A stretch of DNA of 64,000 nucleotides from an uncultured bacterium (lineage in GTDB: Bacteria > Verrucomicrobiota > Lentisphaeria > Victivallales > UBA1829): assembly GCA_900548385.1 (NCBI GenBank), contig URKJ01000008.1, positions 43,585 to 107,584 on the forward strand, in the 5' to 3' direction. The translations under genes and the position numbers were made by a program. Below the pieces are notes generated by a model. The model did no database searches. It worked only from the letters and a program-made list of their open reading frames with translations, and was not told the origin of the DNA. Shown piece by piece: positions 5,180-50,263 of the stretch (within the stretch, counting starts at the first letter, position 1; each line of letters opens with the position of its first letter).

Positions 5180-5228
5180 AATATTCCTTTTCTGGTTATA
5201 TGCTCGGTGCATGACGTAACGGTTTTGC

Positions 5229-10038: not shown

Positions 10039-10041
10039 GCA

Positions 10042-10998
10042 TCATTCCGTGCGGACGCTGTCGCGCACGATGAGCTTGTAGGGAATGGTGGTGCTGCGCG
10101 GCACGGGCTGATTGCTCAGCCGCGCATCCAGCGCATCGGCGACGGCATTTGCCAGAGCGCCGTAATCCTGTGTGATGGCCGTTTGCGGAGGAATGGCGTA
10201 ACGGGAGAAAACGGTCCGTTCGGAAGCGATCAGCGAGATGTCGTCCGGAACCCGGCGGTTGTAGAGAGAAAGCGCATACGCCGCCACCATTCCGGCATTT
10301 CCGCCCGGACAGAACAGGGCGTCGATTCCAAGTTTCAGCAGTTTGCCGATCGCCTCGATGTATTCGTCTTCCAGTGCAAACCGGATAAGAGCGGCTGTTG
10401 CGGGCAGACCGTACTTTTTCAGCGCTTTCCGTACCCCGTCGCAGCGGATTCCGGTATTGCCTTCCCCTTCGCGCCCGTAGATGATCGTGCCGACTTTCCG
10501 GCATCCGTTTTCCGCAAGATGAGCGATTGCGAGTTCCATTGCCTGCATTTCGTCGGAACGGACGGAATAGATTTCTTTTGCGGAACGGGGGGCGTCGCGG
10601 TCAATGACGATCAGCGGTGCGGCAAAGGAGTCGTCCCAGTTCCGGAAGAGCATCGCGTCGATGCCGATCCCGATTGCTCCGCAGAACTGGATTCGCGGAA
10701 GCTGTTCCAGATTTTCCTGCGGCAGAATCTCAATGCGGTAACCGCGCGCCGGGAGTTCATGAGTCAGCTCCGTCAGCACCATTTCCACATAGCTCTGGAC
10801 CGGATAGACGGATTTATAGGGGATGATCACGGCGATGTTGCGCATTTTAGTGGAAAGGCGCGGGTGATAGCCGTACTTTCCCGCGACGGCGAACACATGG
10901 CTCCGCACATCCTCGCGTACATTCGGGTGATGACTGAATACCCGCGACACGGTGGCGGTGGAGACTCCCGCTTTTCTGGCGATTTCCTGAAGTTTCAT
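10042..10998 (-). CDS. LacI-family transcriptional regulator
   Basis: MKLQEIARKAGVSTATVSRVFSHHPNVREDVRSHVFAVAGKYGYHPRLS HTH plus a sugar-binding-type C-terminal domain. 318 aa. Confidence 0.9.
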   Translation of the reverse strand: MKLQEIARKAGVSTATVSRVFSHHPNVREDVRSHVFAVAGKYGYHPRLSTKMRNIAVIIPYKSVYPVQSYVEMVLTELTHELPARGYRIEILPQENLEQLPRIQFCGAIGIGIDAMLFRNWDDSFAAPLIVIDRDAPRSAKEIYSVRSDEMQAMELAIAHLAENGCRKVGTIIYGREGEGNTGIRCDGVRKALKKYGLPATAALIRFALEDEYIEAIGKLLKLGIDALFCPGGNAGMVAAYALSLYNRRVPDDISLIASERTVFSRYAIPPQTAITQDYGALANAVADALDARLSNQPVPRSTTIPYKLIVRDSVRTE

Positions 10999-11591: not shown

Positions 11592-13097
11592 TCAGTGCAG
11601 TTCCCGCAGAATATTTTCCGTATCGCTCCGGGCTTCGATCCGCCATCGCCGATTGCAGAGCGCATTCAGAAAATTCCGGTCGTGGCTGATCAGAAACAGC
11701 GCACAGCCGCAGTCCGCGAGTGCGGTTTCCAGACATTCGATTGATGGAAGATCCAGATGATTGGTCGGTTCGTCCAGAATGATCAGCTTGATTTCCCGCA
11801 GCGCTCCGAGACCGAAGAACAGCTTGCGCCATTCGCCGGGACTGCATGTTTCCGCATCCAGAATCCGTTCCGGGCGGGAGCCGAGCGAGGCGACAACGTT
11901 CATGACTTTGCTGTAATCCTTGCGGGAAAGCGACGGCAGAGCGTTCCGGATGTTTTCCGTAACCGTATTGTCCAGTTCCTGCGGCATGTACAAATATTCA
12001 TCGCTGGAAAGTTTTAAGTTTGGAAGCAGATGACGAAGCAATGTGCTTTTGCCACCGCCGTTATCTCCGGTCAGAGCAATCCGGTCATGATTGCCGATCA
12101 TCAGAGAAGGGACGGAAAGAATCCGTTCGCTTCCCAATGGCAATATTCCGGCAGGAGTATCCAGAAGCACGTTTTTCCGGGAATAACATCCGTATGGGAT
12201 TTTTAAGCCGTATTCCGCTTTTTTGATTGTTCCGATTCCGGCAAGTTGGATTTCGGTTCGTTCGATAATCCGGCTTTGCAACGATGCAAGATCCCCGGCG
12301 GTGCGGTCCCGTCCGGTGACGCGGGCGGCGTCGATCCGTCCTTTTCCGTCGTGATCGTAACGATCCAGTTTCCGCTTGCAGTCGGCGTTGCGCGACTTCT
12401 GTTCTTTTTCGCGGCGGCGCTGCAGTTCAAGTTTATTGCGTTTCAGTTCTTTTTTGAGATTTTGCCGCAATGCAATCTTCTGCTCAATTTCAGCTTCTTG
12501 AAGCGCAGTACCGAAGGTCACTCCGCCGGGGCGCAGCACGGCTTTGCCGTGTTCCAGAAACAGGCATTGATCGCAAAGAGAGTCCAGCAGTTCGCGGTCG
12601 TGGCTGACCAGTATTCCGATCCCTTGGAATTTTTTCAACTCCCGCATCAGCAGTTCGCGTGTGCCCGCGTCCAGATGATTGGTCGGTTCGTCGATGCAGA
12701 GAACATCCGGCTGACGGAACAGCGCGGCGGCAATCTGGAGTTTTTTCCGTTCGCCCATGGAGAGAGTATGCCAGCGTCCGGGCATATCCGGTGTAATGCG
12801 CAATGTGCCGCGGAGACGGAACGTGCCGCTGTCGTTCGAGTCGAAAAATTCTTCTGCGTTATCCGGAGGAATATCGACCTCCTGTTCGCAGAGAATGCGC
12901 AGGCCGTCCGCACGGACGCTGCCGCTGTCCGGATGCAGAAAACCGCAGACAAGTTTCAGCAGAGTGCTTTTGCCGCTGCCGTTCGCTCCGACAATGCCGG
13001 TCCAACCGCGTGATAATTGAAGAGTCAGGTCATGAAACAATGCGCCGTCGGCGGATTCATAACCGAAATTTAGATGGGTAAATAAGACGAAAGACAT
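11592..13097 (-). CDS. ABC-F family ATPase (two ABC domains, no transmembrane domain); possible ribosome-protection type
   Basis: Walker A GANGSGKST and GDNGGGKST. Signature/Walker B LSMGERKKLQIAAALFRQPDVLCIDEPTNHLD and CSPGEWRKL..LIILDEPTNHLD. Charged Lys/Arg/Glu-rich interdomain linker. ATG at 13097 preferred over GTG at 13142. Confidence 0.85.
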   Translation of the reverse strand: MSFVLFTHLNFGYESADGALFHDLTLQLSRGWTGIVGANGSGKSTLLKLVCGFLHPDSGSVRADGLRILCEQEVDIPPDNAEEFFDSNDSGTFRLRGTLRITPDMPGRWHTLSMGERKKLQIAAALFRQPDVLCIDEPTNHLDAGTRELLMRELKKFQGIGILVSHDRELLDSLCDQCLFLEHGKAVLRPGGVTFGTALQEAEIEQKIALRQNLKKELKRNKLELQRRREKEQKSRNADCKRKLDRYDHDGKGRIDAARVTGRDRTAGDLASLQSRIIERTEIQLAGIGTIKKAEYGLKIPYGCYSRKNVLLDTPAGILPLGSERILSVPSLMIGNHDRIALTGDNGGGKSTLLRHLLPNLKLSSDEYLYMPQELDNTVTENIRNALPSLSRKDYSKVMNVVASLGSRPERILDAETCSPGEWRKLFFGLGALREIKLIILDEPTNHLDLPSIECLETALADCGCALFLISHDRNFLNALCNRRWRIEARSDTENILRELH

Positions 13098-13112
13098 GAT
13101 TGTGCAACCTTG

Positions 13113-13149
13113 AAAAGAAACAGAATAAGCAACGGCAGACACTCTGCCG
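13113..13149 (-). terminator. Intrinsic-terminator-like hairpin inside the 5' leader of the ABC-F gene (candidate attenuator)
   Basis: Minus strand reads ACGGCAGA-GTG-TCTGCCGT (8-bp stem) followed by TGCTTATTCTGTTTCTTTT. It ends about 15 nt before the ABC-F start codon. Confidence 0.5.
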
Positions 13150-13351
13150 TGATTGTGAAATCCCCTGAATACGGGGACCGTTCATCTGTTTACCGGATGT
13201 CGCGCAATGGGATGTCCTCCATGTTGTGAGTAAATCTATAATATTAATATAGCGTGCAAAAGAAAAAAATCAAGCGGGAAACGCATACGATTTTCTGTAC
13301 TCCGGAGCGCGGAGCTCAATGCTCTGCCGTATGAAAACTGTGAGTAAAGAG

Positions 13352-13405
13352 GCCCGCCGCTCTCCCGGGAATGAAACCGGTGGTTCGGTTTGGAGAGCGG
13401 CGGGC
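13352..13405 (-). terminator. Stem-loop terminator downstream of carB
   Basis: Perfect 14-bp inverted repeat GCCCGCCGCTCTCC / GGAGAGCGGCGGGC, starting 16 nt after the carB stop. The trailing sequence is only moderately T-rich. Confidence 0.55.
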
Positions 13406-13420
13406 CGGGAAGGAGCGTTT

Positions 13421-16400
13421 TCAGTTCCGGCACTTTGCGGGAGCGAGATGCCGGTGATATTCCTGCAAACTGCACACCTCGAAGCGTCCGAATTCCAGTT
13501 TGTCCGTGAGACCTTCCAGAGCGGCGGTCATACCCGCCATCGTGGTGGTGATCGGGATTCCGGCGGCAAGGGCGCGGGAACGCATGAGGACTTCGTCGGT
13601 CATTGCCTCCGCGCCGTTTTCGCTGGTGTTGATGATCCACTGGATCCCGTTGTCCTGAATCAGATCCAGCAGATTCGGGCGTCCCCGTGAGATCCGGTAG
13701 ATTGCCTGCGCTTTGATCCCGTTGTCCCACAGAAGCGTGGAGGTTCCACGGGTCGCATAGAGTTTGAAACCGAGTTCGACCAGTTTGCGCGCGAGTTCCA
13801 CGGCGTGCGGTTTGTCTTCGTCGCGAACGGAGAGAAAGACGCTGCCGGAAGCGGGGAGACGGTTTCCCGCCGCGAGCTGGCTTTTGAGATAAGCGAGTCC
13901 GCGGTCCGGGTCGATGCTCATGACTTCTCCGGTGGATTTCATTTCCGGGCTGAGCATGACATCCACGCCCGGAAATTTGACGAACGGAAAGACCGCTTCC
14001 TTGACGGCCGTATAAGGCAGACGGACCTCGTCTGTGAAGCCGAGCTGCTCCAGCGTTTCTCCCGCCATACAGCGGGCGGCGATTCCCGCCAGCGGCACTC
14101 CGATCGCTTTGCTGACGAACGGGACCGTGCGGGAGGCGCGGGGGTTGACTTCGATCATGTAGATTTCGCCGTTCCGGACCGCCAGCTGCATGTTCATCAG
14201 TCCGCAGACGTGCAGTTCTCTGGCGAATGCGCGGGCGTAGTCTCTCACTTTATCCAGAATGGGGGACGGCAGAGTCATGGGCGGAATCACGCTTGCGGAG
14301 TCGCCGGAATGAATCCCGGCGGGTTCCACATGTTCGAGGATCGCACCGATCATAGTCCGTTTTCCGTCGCTGACGCAGTCGACGTCCAGTTCCGTTGCGT
14401 TTTCGAGAAAACGGTCGATCAGGATCGGTTTCCCTTCCGCTGCCGCGGCGGCTTCCCCCACATATCTGCGCAGGTTTTCTTCCCGGTGGACGATCACCAT
14501 TCCGCGTCCGCCGAGCACGAACGAGGGGCGTACCAGAAGCGGATAGCCGATACGGTCCGCGATTTCGACCGCCTCGGCGACGCTGTGGGCAATGCCGGAA
14601 TCCGGCTGACGGATGCCGATTCTGGCGGACAGCTGTTTGAAGAAATCGCGGTCTTCGGCGGCGTCGATGTCATCGGGGCTGGTTCCGATCACGTTTGCAC
14701 CCGCCGCCTGAAGCTGACGGGCGAGATTCAGCGGAGTCTGTCCGCCGAACTGCACGATTACGCCCGAACATTGTTCCCGTTCATAGACCGCCATGACGTC
14801 CTCAAGGGTCAACGGTTCAAAATAGAGTTTGTCGCTGGAGTCGTAGTCGGTGGAGACCGTTTCCGGGTTGCTGTTGACCATGACGACCTCCCAGCCGGCT
14901 TTCCGCAGGGCGAATGTCGCGTGCATACAGCAGTAATCGAATTCGATGCCCTGACCGATCCGGTTCGGTCCTCCGCCGAGGATCATGACGGTCCGTTTGC
15001 CGTTGTGGTCGCGTACCGGTTCGTCGTATTCTTCGTAAGTGGAATAGTAATAAGGTGTTTTCGCTTCAAACTCTCCTGCGCAGGTGTCAACGGTTCCATA
15101 GACGGGATGGAGTCCGATGGATCGGCGTGCGGCACGGACTTCCGTTTCCGTTGTATTCAGAAGGAACGCGATCTGACGGTCGGAATAGCCGAATTCCTTT
15201 GCCTGACGGAACAGCGGCGGGTCCGTGACAAGCGCGTTCAGGGTTTTCCGTGCGGCGATTTCGTCTTCAAACTCTGCGAGTTCCGCAAGATGACGCAGGA
15301 AATAGCGGTCAATCTTCGTAAGATCGTGAATCTGTTCCACGGTCCATCCCCGTTTCAGTGCGGCGCGCAGGACATAGAGACGTTCTGCATTGGGGCGGAT
15401 CAGTTCCGCTTCCATTGCTTCGTCGGACATGGATTCATATTTTCCGTCTTTTCCGTCGGCGCCGAATCCGGCGCGTCCGGTTTCCAGGGAACGCAGCGCT
15501 TTCTGAAGGGATTGCTTGAGATTGCGTCCGATTGCCATGACCTCGCCAACGGATTTCATTTGAGTTCCGAGGGTGGAATCCGCCGCGGGAAATTTTTCAA
15601 ACGTGAAGCGCGGAACTTTTGTGACCACATAATCCAGCGACGGTTCAAAACAACAGGGCGTTTCCCCCGTGATGTCGTTGCGGATTTCATCCAGTGTATA
15701 GCCGACCGCCAGGAGGGCGGCGATCTTGGCGATGGGAAATCCCGTCGCTTTTGACGCCAGAGCGCTGGAGCGCGAAACGCGTGGATTCATTTCGATGATG
15801 ATACGGCGTCCGTTTTCCGGATTGACCGCCCACTGTACGTTCGAGCCGCCGGTTTCCACTCCGATTGCACGCATGACGTTCAGGCTGTCGTCGCGCATTG
15901 CCTGATACTCCTTGTCGGAGAGGGTCTGGATCGGGGCGATCGTGATGGAGTCGCCGGTGTGAACGCCCATCGGATCGAGGTTTTCAATGGAACAGACGAT
16001 GACGGCGTTTCCTTTTTTGTCGCACATCACTTCCATTTCGAACTCTTTCCAGCCGAGGAGGGATTCTTCGATCAGCACTTCGGAGTTCAGACTGGCGGCG
16101 AGTCCGCGGGAGACGATGCTGCTGAACTCCGCCGGAGTGTGGGCGATTCCGCCGCCGGTTCCGCCGAGCGTGAAGCCCGGACGGATAATCAGCGGCCAGC
16201 TTCCGATCGTTTCCGCAACCGCCAGCGCTTCCGCCATGGAATGCGCCGATCCGGAGCGTGGCAGATCGAGCCCGATGCTCTGCATGGTCTGTTTGAAGAG
16301 CTGACGGTCTTCCGCCCTGTTGATTGCTTCGGCTGTTGCGCCGATCAGTTCGACCTGATAACGGTGGAGAATGCCTTTTTTCTCCAGTTCCATGGCGAGA

Positions 16401-32661: not shown

Positions 32662-34392
32662 TTAGAACTGCGGGAGCGGGAATGCCGCAGTAAACGCTTT
32701 CACTTCTTCGGCGATGGCGGCAAGCGCGGCATCGTCGTTGCGGTTTTCCACGGCGCGGTTGATGAAATCGGCGATCCTGAGCATTTCCGGCTCTTTCATG
32801 CCGCGGGTCGTGACGGCGGGCGTTCCGATACGGATACCGCTGGTGACCATCGGTTTTTCCGGATCGAACGGGATCATATTCTTGTTGACGGTGATGAGCG
32901 CTTTGTCGAGCGCGGTGGCGACGTCTTTTCCGGTCGCCTGTTTCGGACGGAGGTCAACGAGCATGAGATGGTTGTCCGTTCCGCCGGAGACGATGCGGAA
33001 GCCTTTGTCCACAAGAGCTTGGGCAAGAACCGCCGCGTTTTTGACAAGCTGTTCCTGATAGGCCTTGAATTCCGGTTTCAGCGCTTCGCCGAAGCAGACG
33101 GCTTTTCCTGCAATCACATGCATCAGAGGTCCGCCCTGAATGCCGGGGAATACTTTGGAATTGACTGCTTTGAGGTACTGCTCCTTGCAGAGAATGAGCC
33201 CGCCGCGCGGCCCGCGCAGAGTTTTGTGCGTGGTCGTCGTGACAATGTCGCAGTACGGAACCGGGGAGGGATGGATGCCCGCGGCGACGAGTCCGGCGAT
33301 GTGCGCCATATCGACCATCAGCTTGGCGCCGACGGAGTCCGCAATTTCACGCAGTTTTGCAAAGTCGATTGTGCGCGGATAGGCACTGGCTCCCGCAACG
33401 ATCAGAGCGGGTTTGTGTTCGTTTGCGAGCTTCTGGAGTTCTGCATAGTCAATGGTTTCGGTGTCTTTGTTGACGCCGTAAGGGACTATGTTATAGAGCT
33501 GTCCGCTGAAATTCATCTTGTGCCCGTGGGTCAGATGTCCGCCGTGGTCAAGACTCATTGCGAGGATGGTGTCGCCGGGGTTGATGAGTGCAAAATATGC
33601 TGCCATGTTCGCCTGGGAACCGGAGTGCGGCTGAACGTTTGCCGCTTCCGCTCCGAAGAGTTTGCAGGCGCGTTCAATCGCGATCTTTTCCACTTCGTCG
33701 ACGAATTCGCAGCCGTTGTAGTAACGTTTGGCGGGATAGCCTTCCGCGTACTTGTTGGTGAGTACGGAACCCTGGGCGGCGCGGACAGCGCAGCTGGTGA
33801 AGTTTTCGGAGGCGATCAGCTCAATGCCTTCAAACTGGCGAACCGCTTCCCTGTCGATCCATTTGGCAATTTCGGGATCGCTTCCGCGGAGCGCGGCGAT
33901 GTCGTCATAAGAATCTTTTTCAAGCTGGGTGAGGCGTCTTGCATGGCGTCCGCCGACGCAGGTGAATTCCGTTCCGAGCCATGTGCTGATGATTTCGCAG
34001 ATTTCGTCGCGGGTGAGATAATCGGCGGGGATCACGAGAACGTTGGTGCAGTTGTGGTCACGGCTTGCCTTGGCGAGTTTGGTGCTGTAAGCGACGGCGG
34101 CGCGGACTCCGTGGAAACGGTTTGCCACGATGGCCATTCCGATGCCGGAGCGGCAGATCAGGATGCCTTTTTCAACCTCGCCGGCGGAGACCGCACGGGC
34201 AAGGACGGCGCCGAACGTGTTGTAATCATCTTCGGGATCGAACTTGGAGGGACCGCAGTCGATTACGTCGAGCCCTTTGGCGGAAAGCGCCGCCGTGATC
34301 TCTTTTTTGAGTTCGAAACCACCGTGGTCTGCGGCGATCGCGATGCGTTTGTCGTCTTTGTTCCAGTCGGAGATTGATTTCATTCGTGACAT
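32662..34392 (-). CDS. glyA: Fusion protein: ribose-5-phosphate isomerase B (RpiB/LacAB) domain plus serine hydroxymethyltransferase
   Basis: Residues about 15-160 carry [14 protein letters not shown] and [17 protein letters not shown] (RpiB). From about residue 165: [25 protein letters not shown] (PLP Lys) and the rest of a full-length SHMT. One uninterrupted 576-aa frame. Confidence 0.9.
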
Positions 34393-34408: not shown

Positions 34409-34879
34409 TTATGTCGTTTTCGTATGATTCAGCACATCGAGGAAGAGGTTCCGGAGCGGTTCCTTCATCTCTTCAAAACAATTCCGGTAAACGTCGGGGG
34501 ATCCGCCGTAAGGGTCGGCCACTCCGGTGTTCCTGCGGCTGTCGGAACGGAATTCGTTCAGCAGGTGGATTTTTTCCCGGACTTCCGGAAAGCACTCAAG
34601 AACGGCGGTGCGGTGCGATGCCGTCATGGTGATGATCAGGTCTGCTTCCGATACGAGCCGTTCGGAAAGAACGGATGCCGTATGCCCGGTGATGTCTTCC
34701 CCGTTTTCCTGCATAACGAGAATGGAGTTGCGGGTGGCGGGCAGTCCGTCACAGGTGCAGGTTCCGGCGGAGGCGCAGCGGATCGCCGGTGTATTCGCTT
34801 CCCGCGCGAGTTTACGGAAGTATCCCTCGCACATGGGACTCCGGCAGGTATTCCCGGTGCAGACAAACAGGACATTCAT
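34409..34879 (-). CDS. Low-molecular-weight protein phosphatase (LMW-PTP / arginine-phosphatase family)
   Basis: P-loop [14 protein letters not shown] at the N-terminus and a DP motif later in the sequence. About 156 aa from MNVLF. Confidence 0.88.
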
Positions 34880-35028
34880 GACTGGACCGCTCTCCATATA
34901 AGGTTGATATGATCCCGTAATATACCACGCTTTCAGGAAAAATCACGCCGGATTCCAAAGTTTTTCCAGGAAAACTGGATTTCCGGTATCCGGCGCTGTT
35001 TTTTCTGATCGGACAGAATGTTTTCTGT

Positions 35029-35748
35029 TCAATTTTTTTTCAGGGCGGAGATCAGATTTTCCAGAGTTTCCCGGCTGCTGACGGCATTGGAGTCTTCCGG
35101 TGCTGCTTTCTTTTCCGGTTTGGCAGTCGGAGTTTCCCCGTCGCCGTTCTTCTTTTCCGGATCGGAGACAGGAGTTTCCTCTTTGAAACTTCCGCCGTTT
35201 GCAAGATACAGAATCGCGGGGTATTGTTCCATCCAGACCGCCTGGGCAGGTGTCTGCGGCGTTCCGCATTGGACGGTCCGGATCATCCGCGGAAGCACCA
35301 GATTGGAGAAGCGGAGAACGTTGGGCTGGGAGACGAGAGGTATTTTGTCCACCAGAGCAACCGAGGACAGACCGAGTGTCAGCACCGCCATGCAGGCGAG
35401 CGCTCCTCCGTAGACACAGAGGAACCGGAGAACCATTGAAATATGCGTCGGATAGCTGATATGCCGGTTATCCGGCGGAAACATCTGCGAAAACGCCGCA
35501 CAGAGAATGATCATCAGGATCAGACCCGCTCCCGGCAGAGCGATCAGGGAGACCCAGCCGCGTCCGGATTCCGGCAGATACTGCAGGAGCTTCTCTATCA
35601 CATAAGGCTGGAGCCCGAATACCGTACAGCCTGCCAGCAGGGCGCTGCAGAAAAAAATCCATGCCCGTTCAAAACGCCAGCGGGACGTACAAAAGGCGAT
35701 TATCAGCGGAATTCCGAAAAAAACGATCAGTTCAAGCATTTTCTTCAT
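35029..35748 (-). CDS. Multi-pass membrane protein with a charged C-terminal tail (CvpA-like topology, tentative)
   Basis: About four hydrophobic segments (LELIVFFGIPLIIAF, WIFFCSALLAGCTVFG, WVSLIALPGAGLILMIILCAAF, LRFLCVYGGALACMAVLTLGL), then a soluble Lys/Glu/Pro-rich tail. The start is uncertain (35748 or 35739). It overlaps the end of the upstream gene. Confidence 0.6.
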   Translation of the reverse strand: MKKMLELIVFFGIPLIIAFCTSRWRFERAWIFFCSALLAGCTVFGLQPYVIEKLLQYLPESGRGWVSLIALPGAGLILMIILCAAFSQMFPPDNRHISYPTHISMVLRFLCVYGGALACMAVLTLGLSSVALVDKIPLVSQPNVLRFSNLVLPRMIRTVQCGTPQTPAQAVWMEQYPAILYLANGGSFKEETPVSDPEKKNGDGETPTAKPEKKAAPEDSNAVSSRETLENLISALKKN

Positions 35749-38700
35749 CCTCCATATTGGGAAGTGCGTTATTGATCTCATCCAGTGCCACGACACCTTT
35801 GGCAGCCAGACAGTATGCCGTGATGCGGAGCAGGTTCATGCGGCCGCCGCCGTTTGTACAGCATTTCAGCCAGTCGGCGGTCGGGAGCACCGAGCCGTAA
35901 ATCACGACCGGGCGGTCTTCTCCGCTCTGGGAACATTCCATGCAGCCGTTTTTGGCGCGGAGATTGTTGTCCGGCAGATTCAGCCGGCGGAAATCTTCCC
36001 GGTTTTCCTCCGGGAGTTCCGCGTGTACGGCACAGCTGCAGAGTTTATGAAGCATCAGCGGGGAGACGATCAGTTTCAGGGTTTCCAGCATCTGCGTTTC
36101 TGAGATTCCCGCATCCAGACAGAGTTTTACCGCTTTTTCCGCAGTCGGCTGTTCCAGAAGAAGAACGATCGGTTTCACTTCCGAGAGACGGAATGCGCAG
36201 CGGATGGTTGCGGCGTCGTTCCGTTCCAGCGTGATGGCGGCGGCGCGGCAGTCCGGCAGGGCGCCAAGCAGCTGTTCAGGCGTGATTTTGGCGCTCAGGT
36301 TCGCTTTGAGACGCGGAACCTCGTTGGATCCGGCCGGTTCGTTGCCGTCGCCGATCCAGACCGTGCTGCCGAGTTTTGCGGCGAACTGTTCAAGCAGAAG
36401 CGAAATGAATGTCCGTCGCCCGTTGCCCGGCTTTCCGGTAACGATGATCAGGCCGTTCGGCTTGGCAAGGATCGAATCGACGGCTTTTTTTCCTTCCGGG
36501 GAAAGTACGAGCTGCTGGAAGCTGTGAAGCTCATCCTGAGCCCGTTTAAGCGTCAGCAGGGCGCGTTCGCCCTGAACTCCCATTCCGATCGTGCTGATCA
36601 GGACCCGTGTGCGGCTGTGTTCTTTCTGAATGGTGAAACAGCCGTTCTGCGGGTTGACTTCCTCGTAGGCGTCGAGTCCGGCAAGATTTTTCAGGATGAT
36701 GAGGATATTGCGTCCGGTCGCCATATCAAGCTGCATCAGCTGCCGGTCCTGTTTCGCCTGTTTGAGGATGATCTGATAGTTGGTTCCCGTCGGCGAGAAC
36801 AGAATTCCCGAACAGTGACGGGTGAGAGCCTGCGTGAGTATGCCCCGGCAGAGGTTGAGGAAGAGTGCGTTTTCCGGGGATGGCGCCTGGGCGCTCTCTT
36901 CGCCGTCGGCATTGAAGAAGCGCAGCGGATCCGTTTTCACCTGATCAGAGGTGCTCAGCATTCTGCTGATCCACGGACGGGCAAACGTGTACAGTTTCTG
37001 AAGCAGGATACCGATCGGCATCAGCGGCCCGGCAAAGAACGAGATCAGATTCGCCGCTTTGATCCGCGCGGTTTCTTCGCGGGGGAGCATGCGGAGCGAA
37101 AGCAGACCGCATGCGATCCAGATAAACCAGAAGACCAGGCAGGGCCACGAAAGCAGTATTTTCTGATCGCCGTATGGCGGGACGATCTCTTTTCCGGAGC
37201 TTTTTTCTCCGGCCAGTTCTTTGACAGGTTCTTTTTTGAGTTCTTCAAGAGTCTGTTTGATACTGGCGGTAAATTTGTTTTTTTCCGGAAGCTGGCCCAA
37301 AAGGTCATCTGTGGGGACAACTCCCGCTTTGAGCAGCGGAATAATGAGGTTGAACCGTTCCTGCTGCAATGCCAAGGACAGCGCGCTTTCCTGATCCAGA
37401 TTCACGGCATTGGGATTGCACGGAACCGCAAGCAGGGATTCCAGAAATTCGGTTTCCCCCTTGTTGAGACGCAGGAAGAGAATCAGCGCGGTGTCGTGAC
37501 GGCTGTTCAGTGCGGCTGCGGAAACTTTATGCGACAGCAGATAAGAGGCGGATTTCTCATTTTTGGCGAGAAGAGCCGCATGGAGCGGAGTATTCCGCAT
37601 CCAGTCGCGACAGTTCAGATTGGCGTTGTTTTCCACGAGCAGTTTCAGAGCATCGGGGTTGTTGACCGCTTCAAAGATCAGCGGAGTGCCGAGTTGGTCG
37701 CCGACATTGGGATCCGCTCCGTTTGCCAGCAGTTCTTTCATCCGCTTGAGATCGTTGGCTCTCAATGCCTTCTGAAGCAGAGTGGTGCCGTCATTCAACG
37801 GCATGTTGAGGTTTGCTTTGTGCTTGATCAGCAGCTTGAGCAGCCAGTCGTAATCGTTGTGTGCGGCGAGGTCAAGCAGGCTGTATTCTCCGTAGCGTTC
37901 ATTGGGAGTGATATAGCCTTTTTCAAACAGCAGTCCGAGAATTTCGGCGTTTTGAGATTTCAGGCTTTCCGCGAGCGCCGCCCGGATCAGCGGTTTGCGC
38001 TTTGCCGCTTCGGTTTTGTTCAGGAGGTCTCCGATCTCCTCTTTCCGTTCTTCCCGGACGTAAGAGGCAATGTGGGAAATCTGCTTGGGGTCGGGGCCGC
38101 AGGAGCGGAATGCGGCGGCGATGACTTGAAGCAGGATAAGGAGTATGGCGACTCCGGCGACAGCAAAAATGATCCGTTTTTTGTGCACTTTGAGGAAAAC
38201 GAACCGTTCCTGCGGCGGCATCTGCATCGGCGTTTCATCCTGCGGGTCCGTCTGCGGACCGCAAAGTTGATCCGCCAGACTCTTGCCGGCGGAGATCAGT
38301 TTTTCATCCACTGCAACGGTATCCGTTTTGATCCCGGCGAAAATATCGGCTGCGGGCGCGGGAGCCGCCTGCGGAATTGTGAGCGTCGGAGCCGCTGTGG
38401 AAGGGGGCGGCTGGGGGTGTGCGGGAGCCGGTGCAGCGGCTGCCTGCGGATTGAGGGTGAGCTTCGGCGGCTGGGGGACGGCTGCCGAAGGAGTTGCCGG
38501 AGCTTGTGCGAAAGACGGAGCGGCTGCCGCGGGAGCGGAAGCCGCCGGTTGCGGATTGAGAGTCAGTTTTGGCGCCGCGGGAGCTGCCGGAGCAGGAGCT
38601 GGTTTGGATTTTGCCGGTTCGTTTTTTGCCGAAGGCGCTGTGCGGAACCGCGGGATCGGCGGAGCTGCCGGAGCGGGAGCCGGGGCAGGAGCTTCCGCAA

Positions 38701-38992
38701 CGGGGACAGCGGGAGCCGGGGCAGGTGTTTCCGCAACGGGGGCAGCGGGAGCCGCCGGGGCAGGTGCTTCCGTTGCCTGTTTCAGTGTGATTTCCTGTTG
38801 ACAGGACGGGCATTGCACCTGTTCGCCCTCCATCCACATTTCCACTTTGAGTTTCTGGTTGCAGTTGGAACAGCGGCAGGTGATCGGTGTCTGTTCCGCC
38901 GTCTGTGCGGTCTGGCAGTGCGGGCAGACGACCTCGCTTCCCGCCTGAGTATCCGCTACGGAGAAAAAATTTTTACATTGTTTACAGAGCAT
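35732..38992 (-). CDS. 1086-aa mosaic protein: double zinc ribbon, Pro/Ala-rich spacer, TM segment, ankyrin repeats, further TM segments, degenerate GspE/PilB-like ATPase domain
   Basis: CKQC..CPHC and CSNC..CPSC zinc ribbons. Ankyrin-type repeats such as DGTTLLQKALRANDLKRMKELLANGADPN and RNTPLHAALLAKNEKSASYLLSH. The C-terminal region resembles T2SS/T4P assembly ATPases (NPQNGCFTI, RVLISTIGMGVQGERALLTL), but the P-loop is GKPGNGRRT (36410..36436). AAGGA RBS before the ATG. Confidence 0.8.
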   Translation of the reverse strand: MLCKQCKNFFSVADTQAGSEVVCPHCQTAQTAEQTPITCRCSNCNQKLKVEMWMEGEQVQCPSCQQEITLKQATEAPAPAAPAAPVAETPAPAPAVPVAEAPAPAPAPAAPPIPRFRTAPSAKNEPAKSKPAPAPAAPAAPKLTLNPQPAASAPAAAAPSFAQAPATPSAAVPQPPKLTLNPQAAAAPAPAHPQPPPSTAAPTLTIPQAAPAPAADIFAGIKTDTVAVDEKLISAGKSLADQLCGPQTDPQDETPMQMPPQERFVFLKVHKKRIIFAVAGVAILLILLQVIAAAFRSCGPDPKQISHIASYVREERKEEIGDLLNKTEAAKRKPLIRAALAESLKSQNAEILGLLFEKGYITPNERYGEYSLLDLAAHNDYDWLLKLLIKHKANLNMPLNDGTTLLQKALRANDLKRMKELLANGADPNVGDQLGTPLIFEAVNNPDALKLLVENNANLNCRDWMRNTPLHAALLAKNEKSASYLLSHKVSAAALNSRHDTALILFLRLNKGETEFLESLLAVPCNPNAVNLDQESALSLALQQERFNLIIPLLKAGVVPTDDLLGQLPEKNKFTASIKQTLEELKKEPVKELAGEKSSGKEIVPPYGDQKILLSWPCLVFWFIWIACGLLSLRMLPREETARIKAANLISFFAGPLMPIGILLQKLYTFARPWISRMLSTSDQVKTDPLRFFNADGEESAQAPSPENALFLNLCRGILTQALTRHCSGILFSPTGTNYQIILKQAKQDRQLMQLDMATGRNILIILKNLAGLDAYEEVNPQNGCFTIQKEHSRTRVLISTIGMGVQGERALLTLKRAQDELHSFQQLVLSPEGKKAVDSILAKPNGLIIVTGKPGNGRRTFISLLLEQFAAKLGSTVWIGDGNEPAGSNEVPRLKANLSAKITPEQLLGALPDCRAAAITLERNDAATIRCAFRLSEVKPIVLLLEQPTAEKAVKLCLDAGISETQMLETLKLIVSPLMLHKLCSCAVHAELPEENREDFRRLNLPDNNLRAKNGCMECSQSGEDRPVVIYGSVLPTADWLKCCTNGGGRMNLLRITAYCLAAKGVVALDEINNALPNMEDEENA
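38676..38780 (-). repeat. In-frame 36-nt tandem repeat (about 2.8 copies) encoding a Pro/Ala-rich spacer
   Basis: Units 38676..38711 and 38712..38747 differ at a few positions. The third unit has a 3-nt insertion. They encode the PAPA(V/A)PVAE(A/T)PAPA stretch of the 1086-aa protein. Confidence 0.8.
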
Positions 38993-39021: not shown

Positions 39022-41196
39022 TCAGAGAGCTTGATATGCGGCAACGTCTTCCGCTGAAACTTCGCCATCCGCACAAAGTTTGTCCAGAGAACTTCTCATC
39101 GTCGTCATGCCGATGGAGGCGGAGGTTTCAAGAACCGAGAGCAGCTGATGGGTCTTGCCTTCACGGATCAGCGCCTGAACCGGCGGAGTGCCGATCATGA
39201 TCTCGAACGCCGCCACGCGGCCGTGTCCGTTCAGACGCGGGAGCAGACGCTGTGCCACGACTCCGGTCACGATATTGGAGAACTGCTGGCGGATCTGGTT
39301 CTGCTGCGCGGACGGGAAGGAGTCGACGATTCGCTCAACGGTCTGCACGGTGTTGTTGGCGTGCAGGGTCGCAAGCACCAGATGACCTGTTTCGGCGGCG
39401 GTGATTGCCGTTGCGATCGTTTCCGTATCGCGCAGCTCGCCGACGAGGATGATATTCGGCGCCTGACGCATTGCCGCGCGCAGTCCGCCTGCGAATGAAA
39501 GCGTATCCCGTCCGAGTTCCCGCTGTTCAATGAAACTGGAAATGTTCTCGTAGGTGTATTCGATCGGGTCTTCGATTGTGATGATGTGCTTGTTCTGGGT
39601 TTTGTTGATCTCGTTCAGCAGACTTGCGAGCGTGGTCGATTTACCGCTTCCGGTCGGTCCGGTGACGAGAATCAGCCCCTGTTTTTTGCTCATGAGCTGC
39701 GAGAGGACCGGAGGCAGGTTCAATTCCGCCGGAGTGGGGATGCGGTCCTGGAGTACACGGCCGACCATTGCGGGGGTTCCGCGCTGGAAGAATGCGTTCA
39801 GGCGGAAGCGCTGAAGCTGGAATTTTTTCCCCGGATCCTGACTCGGCAGCTGCGCGGTGATGGCAAAGTCGAGTTCGCGTTTTTCCTCGTATGTGACCCG
39901 CTGCTGTCTGCCGATGATACTGTAAATCAGGCGCTGAACATCTTTCGCCGCCAGTTCCGGCATACTCAGCGGAGTGAATTTGCCGCGTTTGCAGAGGACC
40001 GGCGGGGCGTTGACCACAAGCAGAAAGTCGCTGGCGCCGGAATCTGCCGCGGCTTTGAAAATATCGCGCATGTCGAGGCTGTCGAGACGGCTGGAGCGTT
40101 TGCTCTGTTCCTGTTTTTCCTCGTCGGAAAGCCCGATGTTGCGGAAGAACAGTTTCAGTTCATCGGGATTGTCCGACGCCTTCAGGGCGGTTTCTTCCGT
40201 GATCGCTCCGGATTTGACGAGACGGAACAGTGCGGTATTGAAGTTCTGCATTCCGAACTGCCCTCCGAGACGGATGGAGAGTTCCAGCCCGCTGATGTCC
40301 TGACGTTCAATCTGCTTTTTCACCGTTCCCGTGCCGACCAGGATCTCCTGTGCGGGGACAAGGCCGGAGCCGTCGGCGCGCGGAAGCAGGCGCTGGGAGA
40401 TGACCGCTTCCAGAACCTGCGCAAGGTTGTAGGTCATCTGTTCGCGGGAACCTTCCGGGCACATGTTGATCAGACGTTTCACGGTTCCGGCGGCGTCGCT
40501 GGTGTGGAGAGTCGAGAAAACGAGGTGACCGGTCTGTGCGGCGGTAACCGCGATCTGCATCGTTTCCAAATCGCGCATTTCACCGATCATGATGACGTCG
40601 GGGCTTTCGCGCAGGGCATTGCGGAGCGCTTCGCCAAAGCCGGAACCGAGTGCGTCGACTTCACGCTGGGAGATCAGTGACAGCTTATCCTGATGGAGAT
40701 ATTCGATCGGGTCTTCCAGTGTCAGAATATGCTTGCGGCTGTTGGAGTTGATATAGTCGATCATGGCGGTCAGTGTGGTGGACTTTCCGCTTCCGGTGGT
40801 TCCGGTCACGAGGACCAGCCCGCGTTCCAGCATGGCGATCTTGCGGATCGTATCTGCGAGGCCGAGCTTTTCAAAGTCGAGTTTGCCGCCCATGCGGATC
40901 GGTCTTGCCACGAAGCAGGGACCGTTGACCGTTTCAAAAAAGTTCATACGGAAACGGTTCTGCGGGTCGTAAATATAGGAGATGTCGTAGCCGCGGGTAT
41001 GGGTATATTTCTCTTCCCCCGCCGTTCCGATCAGGGAGATTCGGAACTGGTTGATCTCTTCCGGCGTGATTTCCGGGAACTCCACCTGAAGCATTTCTCC
41101 GCCGGAACGGCAGGACGGGACTTTCCCGGAGGAAATAAACAGGTCGGTTACCTTGTTTTCCAGAGCGAATTTCAGCAGTGTGACGATGTTTTCCAT
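39022..41196 (-). CDS. pilT: Tandem-domain PilT-family ATPase (N-terminal PilU-like module fused to C-terminal PilT-like module)
   Basis: Module 1 has GTTGSGKSTT, DVIMIGEMRD and GHLVFSTLHT. Module 2 has GPTGSGKSTT, NIILVGELRD and GHLVLATLHA, plus an AIRNLIRE-like motif (ALIREGKTHQ). They are joined by an acidic/Ser-rich linker SDEEKQEQSKRSSRLDSLD. A single 724-aa frame. Confidence 0.9.
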   Translation of the reverse strand: MENIVTLLKFALENKVTDLFISSGKVPSCRSGGEMLQVEFPEITPEEINQFRISLIGTAGEEKYTHTRGYDISYIYDPQNRFRMNFFETVNGPCFVARPIRMGGKLDFEKLGLADTIRKIAMLERGLVLVTGTTGSGKSTTLTAMIDYINSNSRKHILTLEDPIEYLHQDKLSLISQREVDALGSGFGEALRNALRESPDVIMIGEMRDLETMQIAVTAAQTGHLVFSTLHTSDAAGTVKRLINMCPEGSREQMTYNLAQVLEAVISQRLLPRADGSGLVPAQEILVGTGTVKKQIERQDISGLELSIRLGGQFGMQNFNTALFRLVKSGAITEETALKASDNPDELKLFFRNIGLSDEEKQEQSKRSSRLDSLDMRDIFKAAADSGASDFLLVVNAPPVLCKRGKFTPLSMPELAAKDVQRLIYSIIGRQQRVTYEEKRELDFAITAQLPSQDPGKKFQLQRFRLNAFFQRGTPAMVGRVLQDRIPTPAELNLPPVLSQLMSKKQGLILVTGPTGSGKSTTLASLLNEINKTQNKHIITIEDPIEYTYENISSFIEQRELGRDTLSFAGGLRAAMRQAPNIILVGELRDTETIATAITAAETGHLVLATLHANNTVQTVERIVDSFPSAQQNQIRQQFSNIVTGVVAQRLLPRLNGHGRVAAFEIMIGTPPVQALIREGKTHQLLSVLETSASIGMTTMRSSLDKLCADGEVSAEDVAAYQAL

Positions 41197-43580: not shown

Positions 43581-43744
43581 TTCCTTCCGGTTCTGTTTCC
43601 GGATAAAATAGCAGATTTCCGGAAAAAATCAAATTTACCGTATTTTCTGTCCGTTTTTCTCCGCTTTTTATTGGACAATATTACGATTATGTGTTATTTT
43701 TTCCGTTGTTTTCCGCTTTGTCCAAACGCATCGGGCGAAGTGCG

Positions 43745-43752
43745 TGTATAAT
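43745..43752 (+). promoter_or_regulatory. Candidate extended -10 promoter element (TGTATAAT)
   Basis: TGTATAAT lies 35 nt upstream of the ATG at 43787, which has an AAGGAG RBS at 43775..43780. Confidence 0.4.
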
Positions 43753-43786
43753 ATGGTCAGACAGCCAACTTAACAAGGAGTTTGTC

Positions 43787-46249
43787 ATGCATCTGAAAAA
43801 TGTGACTTTGGAACTCAGTTCCAAGCCGTTCCGGGATGAATCCGAGGCGACCATGTATTCGGTCTGCCGCCACATGTTTACGCAGTGGAAGGATCTGACC
43901 GACACGGCGGATGTGGTGTCGGTCATGCTGTGGACTTCGGACGGCAGTGAGATTTTTGAATATACCGGAGATCTCTCTCAGCGTTTTGAATGGGCATACT
44001 GGTGCGGATGCGCCAATCATTGTACCCGTCCGGAAAATCCGACGGAACGGGAGAAGCATCATACGCATAATTTCCCCGTCAAATATATTCCGGAGGCGGG
44101 GCCGCGGCCGTATTCCTGGTTGAAACGCCTGATCGAAGTTCTCCGCGAAACCGGACGGGAGATTACCGGAAAGCCGATCCGCATCGGTGCAACGTATGAT
44201 AACGGTCCGGAGTTTGCCATCTCCAAATTCAAGTATAAGACGCATCGGGAGATTGCGCAGGGGCACACCATGTTTCCGAACAGTGTCGTTACCTGCACCG
44301 CACGCCTGCACGCTGATCCGCAGCCGTATGCCGGATTTCCCGGCGGGATTCCGGAAGGAACGTCGGTCGGCACATTTCTTGCGAAACAGTTCAAGGCGTT
44401 TGCCCGTGACCTTGGTTTTGATTATCTCTGGCTTTCCAACGGAATGGGCTTCGGTACGGAGACCTGGGGGATCACCGGGATGCTTTTTGACAAAAAGCGG
44501 TTTTATCCGGAAAAGGCGGATGAAGCCGCACAGAAAATGCTGGATTTCTGGAAAGATTTCACCGAAGCATATCCGGAATGCGTGATCGAAACGCGCGGAA
44601 GCAATTTTTCCGCCGGAGTGGAGATCGCCACGGATGCCTGTCCGATCCGCGAACTGTACCGCGATTACAAAATCGCCCCGCCTGTGAACTCGCCGTGGGC
44701 GGCGTTGAATTTCAATACCGGGCTTGAGATCGTCGCGTGGATGTCTCATGTGGCGGAACTGCCCGACGAGCGTTTCCCGTTCCGCTTCTATATCCATGAT
44801 CCGTGGTTTATGAACAGCCCGTGGCTTGACCGCTACGGCAGGGAGCCGTGGGATCTTTTCCAGCCGCTGAGCATCGGACGGATCGACGGGAAAGGGCGCG
44901 TGAGCATGGCAAACAGCGTTGCCATGCTGTCGGTCGACGATACCTGGGGGCGGATGCCGGATCAGGTTCCCCGTGAAGTGATTCCGCTTCTGCACGATGC
45001 GTTCGACAACGGTCCCGACCGCCCCGGTCCGCTTGTCTGGATCTATCCGTTTGACGAATATTCCGAACTGGTGCGCGGTGCGGATCCCCGGCCGGATGTC
45101 GTATTCACCGAGGATATGTTCATCGGCGAATGCGTACAGGAGGGGGTGCCGCTGAATACGGTCGTCAGTACAGGCAATTTCCGCCGGCTGATGGCGGACC
45201 GCAGCCGCTGTCTGGATTCATCCGTGCTTGTCGTTCCCGTTTCCGCCGCGGATGGCGCGAATATGGATGCGTTGGAGCATTTCCTCGGAAACGGCGGCAA
45301 AGTTCTGTTCTACGGAGCGCTTCAAGGCGCGTCGGAACGACTCCGTTCTCTGCTTCAGCTGAGATGCGATACCGCCGTATCGGGAGATGTGACGATTGAA
45401 AACCGGATGCCGGGGGACTGTTATCAGGGGGCTTCTCCTGCCGCGACCGCGCATATCCTGCCGCAGTTCGCCTGCGGCGGACTGGTCGAGGTTCCGGCGG
45501 AAAATGCGGCATCGAAGCCGTGTGCCTGGGCAGTCCGCGACGGAGTCCGCCGTGTCGCCGCATTGCGCCGCACTCTGGAAAACGGGGCGGAGATCGGATT
45601 CGTCCGTGCGATTCTACCCTCCGCCGCGGAAGTGAAGCCCGGACGCGGATTCGATTACGGCAGCCGGACGGAGATTTATCCGACGCCGCGGCTCATGCGT
45701 GATCTGCTGGCGGAATTCGGCTGGAAGATCCGCTGTTTCGCTTACAATGAAGAAACGCAGATGCCGCGGACCTGTATTTCCCGGCACGATAACGCATTCT
45801 TCTTCACCGTCTATGCTCCCGACACAACGGCGGAAATGCGTGTGAATTCTCCGTATGGCGCGCCGCTGTTGAGCGAGATGGAAACACGGATCGACGAAAA
45901 CGGCGATGCGGTCTGGCATCCCGGAAAATGCTGGCACAGGGAGTGCCGCTGTTTCGTGAAACAGTCGCAGCCGTCGGTGATCTCCGCAAAGATTCAGCAT
46001 CAGGCGTTTCCGTACTATTCGGAGATCGGACGCCGCAACTATTCCGGCTTCCGCGATGCGGAAGTGCGGTTTTTCGTGCCGGAGTCGGCAAAGGGCAAAC
46101 TGGAGATCGTCAATTCTCCGGACAGTGCGGAGTACAGGCTGTTCTCCCTGACGCCGGTTGAATATGAATGGGAGAAGACTCCCGCCGGAACCTGTGCGGT
46201 TCTGAAACATGTAAACGGTTATCTTTACTTTTCCATGGTGAACGAATGA
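43787..46249 (+). CDS. Cytoplasmic 820-aa protein of unknown function (possible glycoside hydrolase/phosphorylase-like multidomain enzyme)
   Basis: Strong RBS and no signal peptide. Aromatic/Asp-rich stretches such as DLGFDYLWLSNGMGFGTETWG and IHDPWFMNSPWLDRYGREPWD. A mid-region (SVLVVPVSAADGANMDALEHFLGNGGKVLFYG) is reminiscent of the GATase-like trimerisation domain of GH42/GH112 enzymes. I cannot assign a family by eye. Confidence 0.6.
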   Translation: MHLKNVTLELSSKPFRDESEATMYSVCRHMFTQWKDLTDTADVVSVMLWTSDGSEIFEYTGDLSQRFEWAYWCGCANHCTRPENPTEREKHHTHNFPVKYIPEAGPRPYSWLKRLIEVLRETGREITGKPIRIGATYDNGPEFAISKFKYKTHREIAQGHTMFPNSVVTCTARLHADPQPYAGFPGGIPEGTSVGTFLAKQFKAFARDLGFDYLWLSNGMGFGTETWGITGMLFDKKRFYPEKADEAAQKMLDFWKDFTEAYPECVIETRGSNFSAGVEIATDACPIRELYRDYKIAPPVNSPWAALNFNTGLEIVAWMSHVAELPDERFPFRFYIHDPWFMNSPWLDRYGREPWDLFQPLSIGRIDGKGRVSMANSVAMLSVDDTWGRMPDQVPREVIPLLHDAFDNGPDRPGPLVWIYPFDEYSELVRGADPRPDVVFTEDMFIGECVQEGVPLNTVVSTGNFRRLMADRSRCLDSSVLVVPVSAADGANMDALEHFLGNGGKVLFYGALQGASERLRSLLQLRCDTAVSGDVTIENRMPGDCYQGASPAATAHILPQFACGGLVEVPAENAASKPCAWAVRDGVRRVAALRRTLENGAEIGFVRAILPSAAEVKPGRGFDYGSRTEIYPTPRLMRDLLAEFGWKIRCFAYNEETQMPRTCISRHDNAFFFTVYAPDTTAEMRVNSPYGAPLLSEMETRIDENGDAVWHPGKCWHRECRCFVKQSQPSVISAKIQHQAFPYYSEIGRRNYSGFRDAEVRFFVPESAKGKLEIVNSPDSAEYRLFSLTPVEYEWEKTPAGTCAVLKHVNGYLYFSMVNE

Positions 46250-49543: not shown

Positions 49544-50263
49544 TCAGTCCTTTTTATAATGCCAGAATGTCTGGAAGCCGGCAGCGTTGGAGTTGACGCT
49601 GGCGCCCGCGTAACGGGTAGGATTGCTCAGACTCCCCGCGTGTCCGTCCAGATAGAGAATATTCGGGTACAACTGATGCCGGAAGGAGGCGGCGAGCAGA
49701 TATTTCCGGTAGCTCGCGGCATGGCTGACCATATAGTTCGTCCCGGAACCGTCCCCGGTATCATCGGCGGTGTCTGCCATGATGCAGATTTGCGACAGAT
49801 TTTTCAAGCGGTCTGGTTTCAGAAAATTAAGGTTGAAATTGAAGCCGAAACTGTAAAAACCCGGATTGCTCGCAAGCCCGTCGTCGGACGGATTGGAGTC
49901 CGATGGACAGAGCAGGAGTTTCGCCATGGTCTCTCTGGGAACCTGGACGCCGTTGACAAACGGGCTGCTGTCGTAACGGACCCATGGACGGGTTCCGGAA
50001 AGCACGGTGCTCGGCATGGCGCTGGAAAACAGAAAACCGTCGTTTGCATCCGTATAGAAACTGCAGAATGTTCCGATCTGTTTCAGATTCCCGGTGCATG
50101 CGATTCTGTTTGCTCTCATCCGTGCGCGGTTCAGGGCCGGAAGCAGCATTGAAACAAGTATTGATATGACAGAAATGACGATCAGAAGTTCTATAAGAGA
50201 AAAGTGTCGGCATCTGCCGGAAGGAAGTTCGGATTTGAACGGTTTACGGATGAACGGGTTCAT
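49544..50263 (-). CDS. Prepilin-type N-terminal cleavage/methylation domain protein with H-X9-DG motif (pseudopilin-like)
   Basis: [24 protein letters not shown] pilin-type N-terminus and C-terminal [12 protein letters not shown]. The start overlaps the regulator stop (ATGA). Confidence 0.85.

Follow-up and report, generated by a model that had tools for sequence, protein, structure and literature searches.

We analyzed a 64,000-nucleotide stretch of DNA from an uncultured Lentisphaeria bacterium (GenBank assembly GCA_900548385.1, contig URKJ01000008.1, positions 43,585 to 107,584), hereafter called the window, and focused on a gene for a tandem PilT-family ATPase. The gene is an uninterrupted open reading frame (ORF) of 724 amino acids plus stop, running from ATG to stop on the minus strand at 39022..41196. 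All coordinates given below for its modules and motifs are on the same strand. Two complete PilT/VirB11-type motor modules are encoded in one chain, as the initial annotation had proposed. The domain search that it had called for matched PF00437 (T2SSE) of Pfam in two separate stretches of the protein, and the whole chain scored 796 bits against TIGR01420. We split the chain at residue 362 and searched each half alone. Both halves were above the curated TIGR01420 cutoff of 319.1 bits, the N-half (residues 1–362) with 377.5 bits (E = 6e-113) and the C-half (residues 363–724) with 424.3 bits (E = 4e-127), and each half covered profile positions 2–343 or 2–334. The N-module (residues 1–345, 40162..41196) has complete N2D and CTD domains, lacks the AIRNLIRE motif and is regarded as a PilU-class paralogue. 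The linker between the modules, ELKLFFRNIGLSDEEKQEQSKRSSRLDSLD, spans residues 346–375 (40072..40161), in agreement with the location of about 40,090–40,150 given before. The C-module (residues 376–724, 39025..40071) begins at a conserved methionine, Met376, also has complete N2D and CTD domains and is of canonical PilT type.

The AlphaFold2 (AF2) model of the full chain, computed with the homologue alignment, had a predicted local distance difference test (pLDDT) value of 88 and a predicted template modeling (pTM) score of 0.53. Low confidence (pLDDT below 50) was limited to linker residues 354–367, and the N-module had a pLDDT of about 88. The model shows the PilT N2D and CTD fold, and Foldseek superimposed it on PilT4 of Geobacter metallireducens (6OJY) with a target-normalized TM score of 0.91 and a root-mean-square deviation of 2.1 Å. 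Each module is thus a PilT/PilU family member on all sequence and fold criteria tested. In the Foldseek search, the alignments to PDB chains extended to about 350 columns at most; the exceptions were PilB/PilF chains (up to 412 columns), which are single-module proteins with a poor fit (TM score 0.63–0.69). Since all PDB alignments were of single-module length, no solved structure appears to contain the tandem. The literature searched gave no description of a tandem or fused PilT, and no relevant work on Victivallis or Lentisphaerae pili. The whole protein therefore appears to match no characterized architecture found in the PDB or the literature.

A survey of databases for PilT-family proteins of 700–750 amino acids, as the initial annotation had advised, returned many such proteins. 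We searched 5.8 billion proteins, and the best 120 matches were all 720–748 amino acids long, 49–100% identical over about 100% of the length, and co-linear with the query. Their sources are assemblies of ENA, NCBI, JGI, and Logan. Those with a name are proteins of metagenome-assembled genomes (MAGs) of Lentisphaerae, Lentisphaeria, or Victivallaceae, and they carry no annotation beyond ‘PilT/PilU family type 4a pilus ATPase’. Seven loci of GTDB species representatives (L001–L007) contain both modules in one stop-free frame each. L001 is from Victivallis (77% identity), L002, L004, L005, and L007 are from Lentisphaeria or Lentisphaerales, L003 is from a MAG labeled Kiritimatiellota, and L006 is from a MAG labeled proteobacterium. 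In an alignment of 64 homologues, the linker is variable in sequence and is held to a length of 29–36 residues (median 32).

Two adjacent pilT genes could have been joined artificially by a sequencing error or a misassembly in the linker, and adjacent separate pilT genes are common elsewhere (L008, L011, L016, L039). The fusion, however, is co-linear in over 100 independent clusters at 90% identity from four data sources, it lies in one stop-free frame in the seven species-representative genomes, and the linker length is conserved in the 64 homologues. Since the fusion is conserved across genomes, is free of stops, and keeps its linker length, misassembly and frameshift are effectively excluded, and we regard an artificial joining as having a negligible chance. 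A pseudogene reading of the fused gene was also rejected. The gene is evidently genuine and long conserved in Lentisphaeria, occurring in Victivallis and its relatives and in a few neighboring MAGs of the PVC (Planctomycetes-Verrucomicrobia-Chlamydiae) group. Its carriers are gut and environmental Lentisphaeria bacteria.

We also scanned 1.84 billion cluster representatives with HMMER and obtained 7,067 proteins at E ≤ 1e-30. Among the best 150 of these 7,067 strong PilT clusters, there were about 10 full-length co-linear tandems (P0121–P0125, P0128, P0129, P0148, P0157, P0176) in addition to fragments. Most of the long PilT-containing representatives are not tandems; they have one module with either an N-terminal extension or C-terminal TPR repeats. 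Similarly, tblastn matches of 2.0–2.4 kb in Patescibacteria, Synergistales, Clostridia, and others were not further fusions; they are pilB-pilT neighbors or adjacent pilT genes. With an estimated 10–20 of the 7,067 clusters, the tandem architecture is rare overall, and it is fixed in one lineage. The initial annotation had raised the prospect that the fused form is already common and characterized. It is common within that lineage, but we found no characterization. The sequences are already in databases under a generic name; what is new is that the architecture has been recognized and analyzed.

The same scan gave other arrangements. In P0123 (1024 amino acids), the tandem described here is preceded by about 300 additional N-terminal residues. 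P0137 (942 amino acids) is a different tandem in which both modules are of the C-half type with partly degenerate His boxes, possibly an independent fusion. Other uncharacterized PilT architectures were seen in P0175, P0206, and P0230 and in P0171, P0172, P0187, and P0228, among others; in these clusters, a PilT module is followed by about 400 residues of TPR-like repeats or preceded by a low-complexity N-terminal region of 300–400 residues.

The motif strings of both modules, re-derived from the DNA, all lie where the initial annotation implied. We assessed their conservation in the 64 homologues, whose identity goes down to 49%. The N-module has Walker A GTTGSGKSTT (residues 132–141, 40774..40803; G132, G135, G137, and K138 invariant), Asp box LEDPIEY (40699..40719; E161, D162, P163, and E165 invariant), Walker B DVIMIGEMRD (residues 200–209, 40570..40599; G205, E206, R208, and D209 invariant), His box TGHLVFSTLHT (residues 222–232, 40501..40533; T222, G223, H224, and H231 invariant), and an invariant Q-R pair (Q177 and R178). 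The C-module has Walker A GPTGSGKSTT (residues 513–522, 39631..39660; G513, T515, G516, S517, G518, K519, and T521 invariant), Asp box IEDPIEY (39556..39576; E542, D543, P544, and E546 invariant), Walker B NIILVGELRD (residues 581–590, 39427..39456; G586, E587, R589, and D590 invariant), His box TGHLVLATLHA (residues 603–613, 39358..39390; E602, T603, G604, H605, L606, T610, and H612 invariant), and an invariant Q-R pair (Q558 and R559). The catalytic residues of both halves, namely the Walker A lysine, the Asp box, the Q-R pair, the Walker B glutamate, and the His-box histidines, are invariant in 64/64 sequences. Both ATP sites are evidently under strong purifying selection, which argues that both modules most likely hydrolyze ATP.

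The AIRNLIRE-like helix is confined to the C-half, as had been claimed. The C-module carries PVQALIRE (residues 672–679, 39160..39183; family consensus pvqaLiRe), in which LIRE is kept and AIRN is replaced. In the N-module, the motif is lost, and the position that aligns with AIRNLIRE of Pseudomonas aeruginosa, Aquifex aeolicus, and G. metallireducens PilT is TVKKQIER (residues 291–298, 40303..40326; family consensus tvrKxiax).

The N-module may instead be mainly a regulatory or scaffolding nucleotide-binding domain, acting as an ATP sensor or as a dock for the PilB-like partner described below, with the C-module alone driving retraction. The N-halves lack AIRNLIRE and evolve faster than the C-halves (mean pairwise identity 46% vs 55%). 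In the divergent tandem clusters P0129, P0148, P0157, and P0176, moreover, the N-half has decayed by loss of the Walker A lysine, the Asp box, and/or the His box. The C-half is intact in P0129 and P0176 despite this loss, whereas Walker B and the His box have decayed in the C-half too in P0148 and P0157. The invariance of the N-half catalytic residues in the 64 sequences of the main Lentisphaeria family, however, argues for hydrolysis rather than binding alone, and we judge a mainly regulatory or scaffolding N-module to be unlikely. As a separate observation, P0129 and P0176 form a natural series toward a pseudo-ATPase N-module.

The ancestry of the halves was examined with neighbor-joining (NJ) trees of 343 columns and 102–103 sequences with 200 bootstraps. 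The N-halves formed an exclusive clade in 169/200 bootstraps and the C-halves in 116/200. The C-halves clustered with canonical PilT of P. aeruginosa, A. aeolicus, and G. metallireducens. The N-halves clustered with PilU (PDB 9N32 and P0127, a true PilU orthologue with 389 bits to 9N32) and with AIRNLIRE-less singletons. A split of the N-halves and PilU from canonical PilT and the C-halves was recovered in 166/200 bootstraps. The two halves of one chain are 31–40% identical (here about 32%), and N- and C-halves together formed an exclusive clade in only 3/200 bootstraps, from which we infer a single old fusion of already diverged paralogues. A recent internal tandem duplication of one pilT gene would fit the likeness of the modules in domain order and length. 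It is refuted by the divergence of the halves, which resemble free-standing PilTs more than each other, and by the scarcity of bootstraps that unite them, and is thus very improbable. An ancient duplication followed by asymmetric divergence keeps a small chance on the NJ trees. In the single-fusion scenario that we prefer, one ancient event would have joined an AIRNLIRE-less PilU-class N-module to a canonical PilT-type C-module with a LIRE-ending helix, through a tether of about 32 residues that is variable in sequence and constrained in length.

A possible likeness of the unfused precursor was also seen. At L016 (8701–12171), from Fervidibacterota, and also at L008, L011, and L039, two or three separate pilT paralogues are arranged head to tail. 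The first pilT of L016 lacks AIRNLIRE and reads TIAKEIEE there, the third has the canonical form (AVRALIRE), and this arrangement may resemble the state before the fusion.

Compared with PilT structures (6OJX/6OJY, A. aeolicus 2GSZ, and P. aeruginosa 3JVU), both modules have the full N2D and CTD fold and every ATPase motif. The C-module has G. metallireducens PilT4 as its best PDB match (307 bits, 46% identity). The tandem differs from PilT in having two modules per chain, in its AIRNLIRE-less N-module, and in the lack of a pilus gene cluster in the window. The N-module resembles PilU (P. aeruginosa 9N32; V. cholerae structures, PMC13142100) in lacking AIRNLIRE, in lying on the PilU side of the tree, and in being paired with a PilT-type partner. 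The link is covalent here, whereas PilT and PilU are separate homohexamers (PMC6821130). The N-module appears to be PilU-class, that is, a motif-less module of the accessory type. The usual gene order is pilT-pilU, and the order of the modules in the tandem, PilU-class and then PilT-class, is opposite to it. The initial annotation had described the protein as PilU-like followed by PilT-like, and this stands for the class of the N-half but not as orthology. The N-half scored 243–260 bits against six full-length PilT structures, the best PDB match being P. aeruginosa PilT (260 bits), vs 220 bits against PilU (9N32), and it is 39.7% identical to P. aeruginosa PilT and 35.4% to P. aeruginosa PilU.

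The closest free-standing relatives of the N-half are AIRNLIRE-less PilT paralogues (P0203, P0217, and the Verrucomicrobiota loci L066 and L079). Together with P0152 and P0133, they are 41–45% identical to the N-half. TVRKLIEE or TIKKLIEE replaces AIRNLIRE in these relatives, and their C-terminal NP..L.M.F.G tail (NP..L.M.F.GI in those from Verrucomicrobiota) resembles the end of the N-half and the start of the linker. The closest relatives themselves match PilT better than PilU, as the L066 singleton does. Unlike the tandem, these paralogues are single-module proteins, and they are uncharacterized themselves.

The covalent joining necessarily fixes a 1:1 stoichiometry of the two modules, as the initial annotation had stated. 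How the chains assemble is less certain. PilT-family hexamers are built from rigid packing units of N2D(n) and CTD(n+1), and they cycle through C2, C3, and C6 states (PMC6858323). PilT and PilU form separate interacting homohexamers, and PilU works only with PilT (PMC6821130; PMC13142100). We considered two arrangements of the tandem. In the first, six chains would make two rings, one of N-modules (N6) and one of C-modules (C6), held together by the tethers, as a covalent counterpart of the interacting PilT and PilU homohexamers. The other arrangement, suggested by the initial annotation, has three chains in one alternating pseudo-hexameric ring (ABABAB) with C3 symmetry, like OCOCOC PilT and comparable to F1 α3β3.

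The three-chain ring draws on the C3 OCOCOC states of PilT and PilU (PMC6858323; Foldseek matches 6OJY and 9N32). The fusion could tie the CTD of the N-module to the N2D of the C-module in one packing unit, which fits the constrained linker length. Tandems whose N-half is dead but whose C-half is live, found in some lineages, also resemble rings that alternate catalytic and non-catalytic subunits. We modeled this packing unit with AF2 as a construct of residues 100–485, containing CTD(N), the linker, and N2D(C), with an alignment of 23 sequences. The pTM score was 0.63, which roughly corresponds to what the larger domain contributes by itself, and there was no confident docking between CTD(N) and N2D(C). 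Moreover, the halves had diverged before the fusion, and heterotypic packing interfaces would therefore have had to evolve. The natural covalent tandem ring ATPases p97, NSF, ClpB, KaiC, and EccC stack their rings and do not alternate their modules within one. On balance, a three-chain ring seems rather unlikely. Because the fusion joined paralogues that were already distinct and because these tandem ring ATPases stack their rings, we tentatively lean toward two tethered rings, at somewhat under even odds. The six-chain double ring is plausible at least to the same degree as the three-chain pseudo-hexamer. To our knowledge, no stacked PilT-family ring has been described.

The likeness to the tandem ring ATPases extends to the chain itself. 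The D1-D2 modules of p97, NSF, and ClpB, the CI-CII modules of KaiC, and EccC of the type VII secretion system share with the tandem the two ATPase modules per chain and, in some lineages, the catalytic decay of one module. They may serve as a template for a double ring of six chains. They belong to different ATPase families, and the likeness is by analogy only.

The fixed stoichiometry would be lost if translation also started at Met376 (40069–40071), producing a free canonical PilT in addition to the fusion. In alignments, Met376 coincides with the initiator methionine of free-standing PilTs, and 63/64 homologues keep it. The two residues preceding it, [VIL]-D, are conserved too, a pattern more suggestive of a structural demand on the first helix than of a start site. 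We looked for a Shine-Dalgarno motif upstream of Met376 and found none, but this check is uninformative because the annotated start lacks the motif too. Internal initiation therefore appears to be quite improbable from the sequence.

The genomic context was inspected for partners of the motor. The window contains housekeeping genes (GOGAT, GS-III, carAB, pyrG, serS, and an RpiB-SHMT fusion) and sugar-utilization cassettes. A probable operon partner lies 29 nucleotides downstream of the tandem gene on the minus strand (35732..38992; Pfam Ank_2 and T2SSE) and encodes 1086 amino acids. The protein has Zn-ribbons, a Pro/Ala-rich tract, ankyrin repeats, and a transmembrane hairpin followed by a degenerate PilB/GspE-like domain, in which Walker A has become GKPGNGRRT and neither an Asp box nor a His box is left. 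It matched PilF/GspE/PilB of the PDB at E of about 1e-9. It is far below every curated family cutoff and falls outside GspE/PilB membership, with 64 bits for NCBIfam GspE vs a cutoff of 617. Among known proteins of the superfamily, Thermus thermophilus PilF and GspE/PilB are most similar to the C-terminal domain of this partner. PilF differs from the tandem in having extra N-terminal GSPII domains and one ATPase module; the partner differs from PilF in being membrane-anchored and without catalytic motifs.

L001 has a PilB/GspE-like gene downstream of the tandem gene (7156–10338), as in the window. At L086, where the tandem gene is 56% identical, it is followed by a 538-amino-acid homologue of the partner (12258–13874; E = 7e-39) that scores 167 bits for GspE and has lost the Walker B glutamate and the His box. 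A membrane-anchored, catalytically degenerate PilB/GspE-like gene is thus directly downstream in three lineages (the window, L001, and L086). Other relatives have different neighbors, indicating that the PilB-like partner is branch-specific. Contexts differ across L081–L086, and the tandem gene has no universally conserved neighbor there.

The next gene downstream, possibly in the same operon, is a hydrophobic ORF of 255 amino acids on the minus strand (35029..35796) with no Pfam or NCBIfam match. As called, it overlaps the 3′ end of the 1086-amino-acid gene by about 65 nucleotides. A counterpart in L001 is 38% identical, and an L086 protein of like size and position had no detectable similarity. 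A gene for a low-molecular-weight phosphotyrosine phosphatase follows at 34409–34897. In L081 (9255–10004) and L085 (9336–9980), a small ORF of 214–249 amino acids without a Pfam match lies directly upstream of the tandem gene. The small ORFs are 37–38% identical, the one in L081 overlaps the tandem gene start by 4 nucleotides, and none is present in the window.

Two DUF1559/SBP_bac_10-type ORFs on the minus strand (4451–5245 and 49544–50263) carry prepilin class III signals (FTLIELL and FSLIELL), indicating that pilin-like substrates exist in the organism. Each is flanked on one side by a regulator of the LacI or GntR type and on the other by a gene for a glycoside hydrolase or a beta-helix protein, and this type of cassette recurs in L081 and L085. 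The DUF1559 pseudopilin-type repertoire of these bacteria is very large and is located in glycan-utilization cassettes.

Taken as a whole, the gene is probably a conserved Lentisphaeria double-motor gene of ancient fusion origin that encodes a retraction-type motor for a type IV filament, although we hold this with reservation. The fusion would work as a retraction-type motor of a pilus or pseudopilus machine. The C-module would take the role of PilT, engaging the platform and docking via its LIRE helix. The N-module would be a permanently tethered auxiliary motor, comparable to the PilT-dependent PilU, so that the 1:1 stoichiometry and the co-localization of the motors are hard-wired. The probable partner of the motor in the Victivallis branch is the membrane-anchored, catalytically dead PilB/GspE-like protein encoded downstream.

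Several points weigh against a retraction-type double motor. No pilB, pilC, pilM-Q, or secretin gene was found within the window, and the examined flanks of the relatives' loci had no pilB, pilC, or pilMNOPQ genes. Gene neighborhoods also vary among family members, so that any tie to a given filament machine is indirect. The N-half lacks orthology to PilU, and long-branch attraction may explain part of its grouping with PilU in the NJ trees. ATPase activity is a prediction from residue conservation. Since the N-half motifs are lost in some divergent lineages, the architecture can exist without two active sites. Finally, the pTM scores of the full chain and of the construct, both from monomer predictions, favor neither assembly model.

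A more specific proposal, which we consider doubtful, is that the tandem forms the core of a distinct and so far undescribed Lentisphaeria type IV filament motor. In such a motor, PilU-class and PilT-class rings, stacked or alternating, would be covalently coupled, a dead transmembrane-anchored dock derived from PilB/GspE would be added in one branch, and DUF1559 pseudopilin-type proteins would be retracted or recycled. If true, the tandem would be the first two-module PilT/VirB11 ATPase from nature to have a defined architecture, and it would serve as a ready structural model for PilT-PilU cooperation. How PilU assists PilT is an open question (PMC6821130; PMC13142100). As a ‘Rosetta-stone’ fusion, a PilU-class and PilT-class pair that is kept joined, with both active sites invariant throughout a bacterial class, speaks for a joint action of such pairs as a single physical unit. 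Unlike the separate proteins, the fusion provides a stable complex of fixed stoichiometry on which cryo-EM and single-site mutagenesis can be done, and the lineages with a decayed N-half provide an evolutionary series from two active sites to one. The gene also draws attention to a so far unstudied filament system of gut bacteria of the Victivallis type, which have many pseudopilin-like proteins in their genomes.

Two further ORFs of the window were noted. An 852-amino-acid ORF on the plus strand (43691–46249) had no Pfam match and may or may not be a real gene, as it lies in high-GC sequence. The RpiB-SHMT fusion is a 576-amino-acid ORF on the minus strand (32662–34392), in which ribose-5-phosphate isomerase B (residues 17–156) is joined to a full serine hydroxymethyltransferase (residues 170–544).

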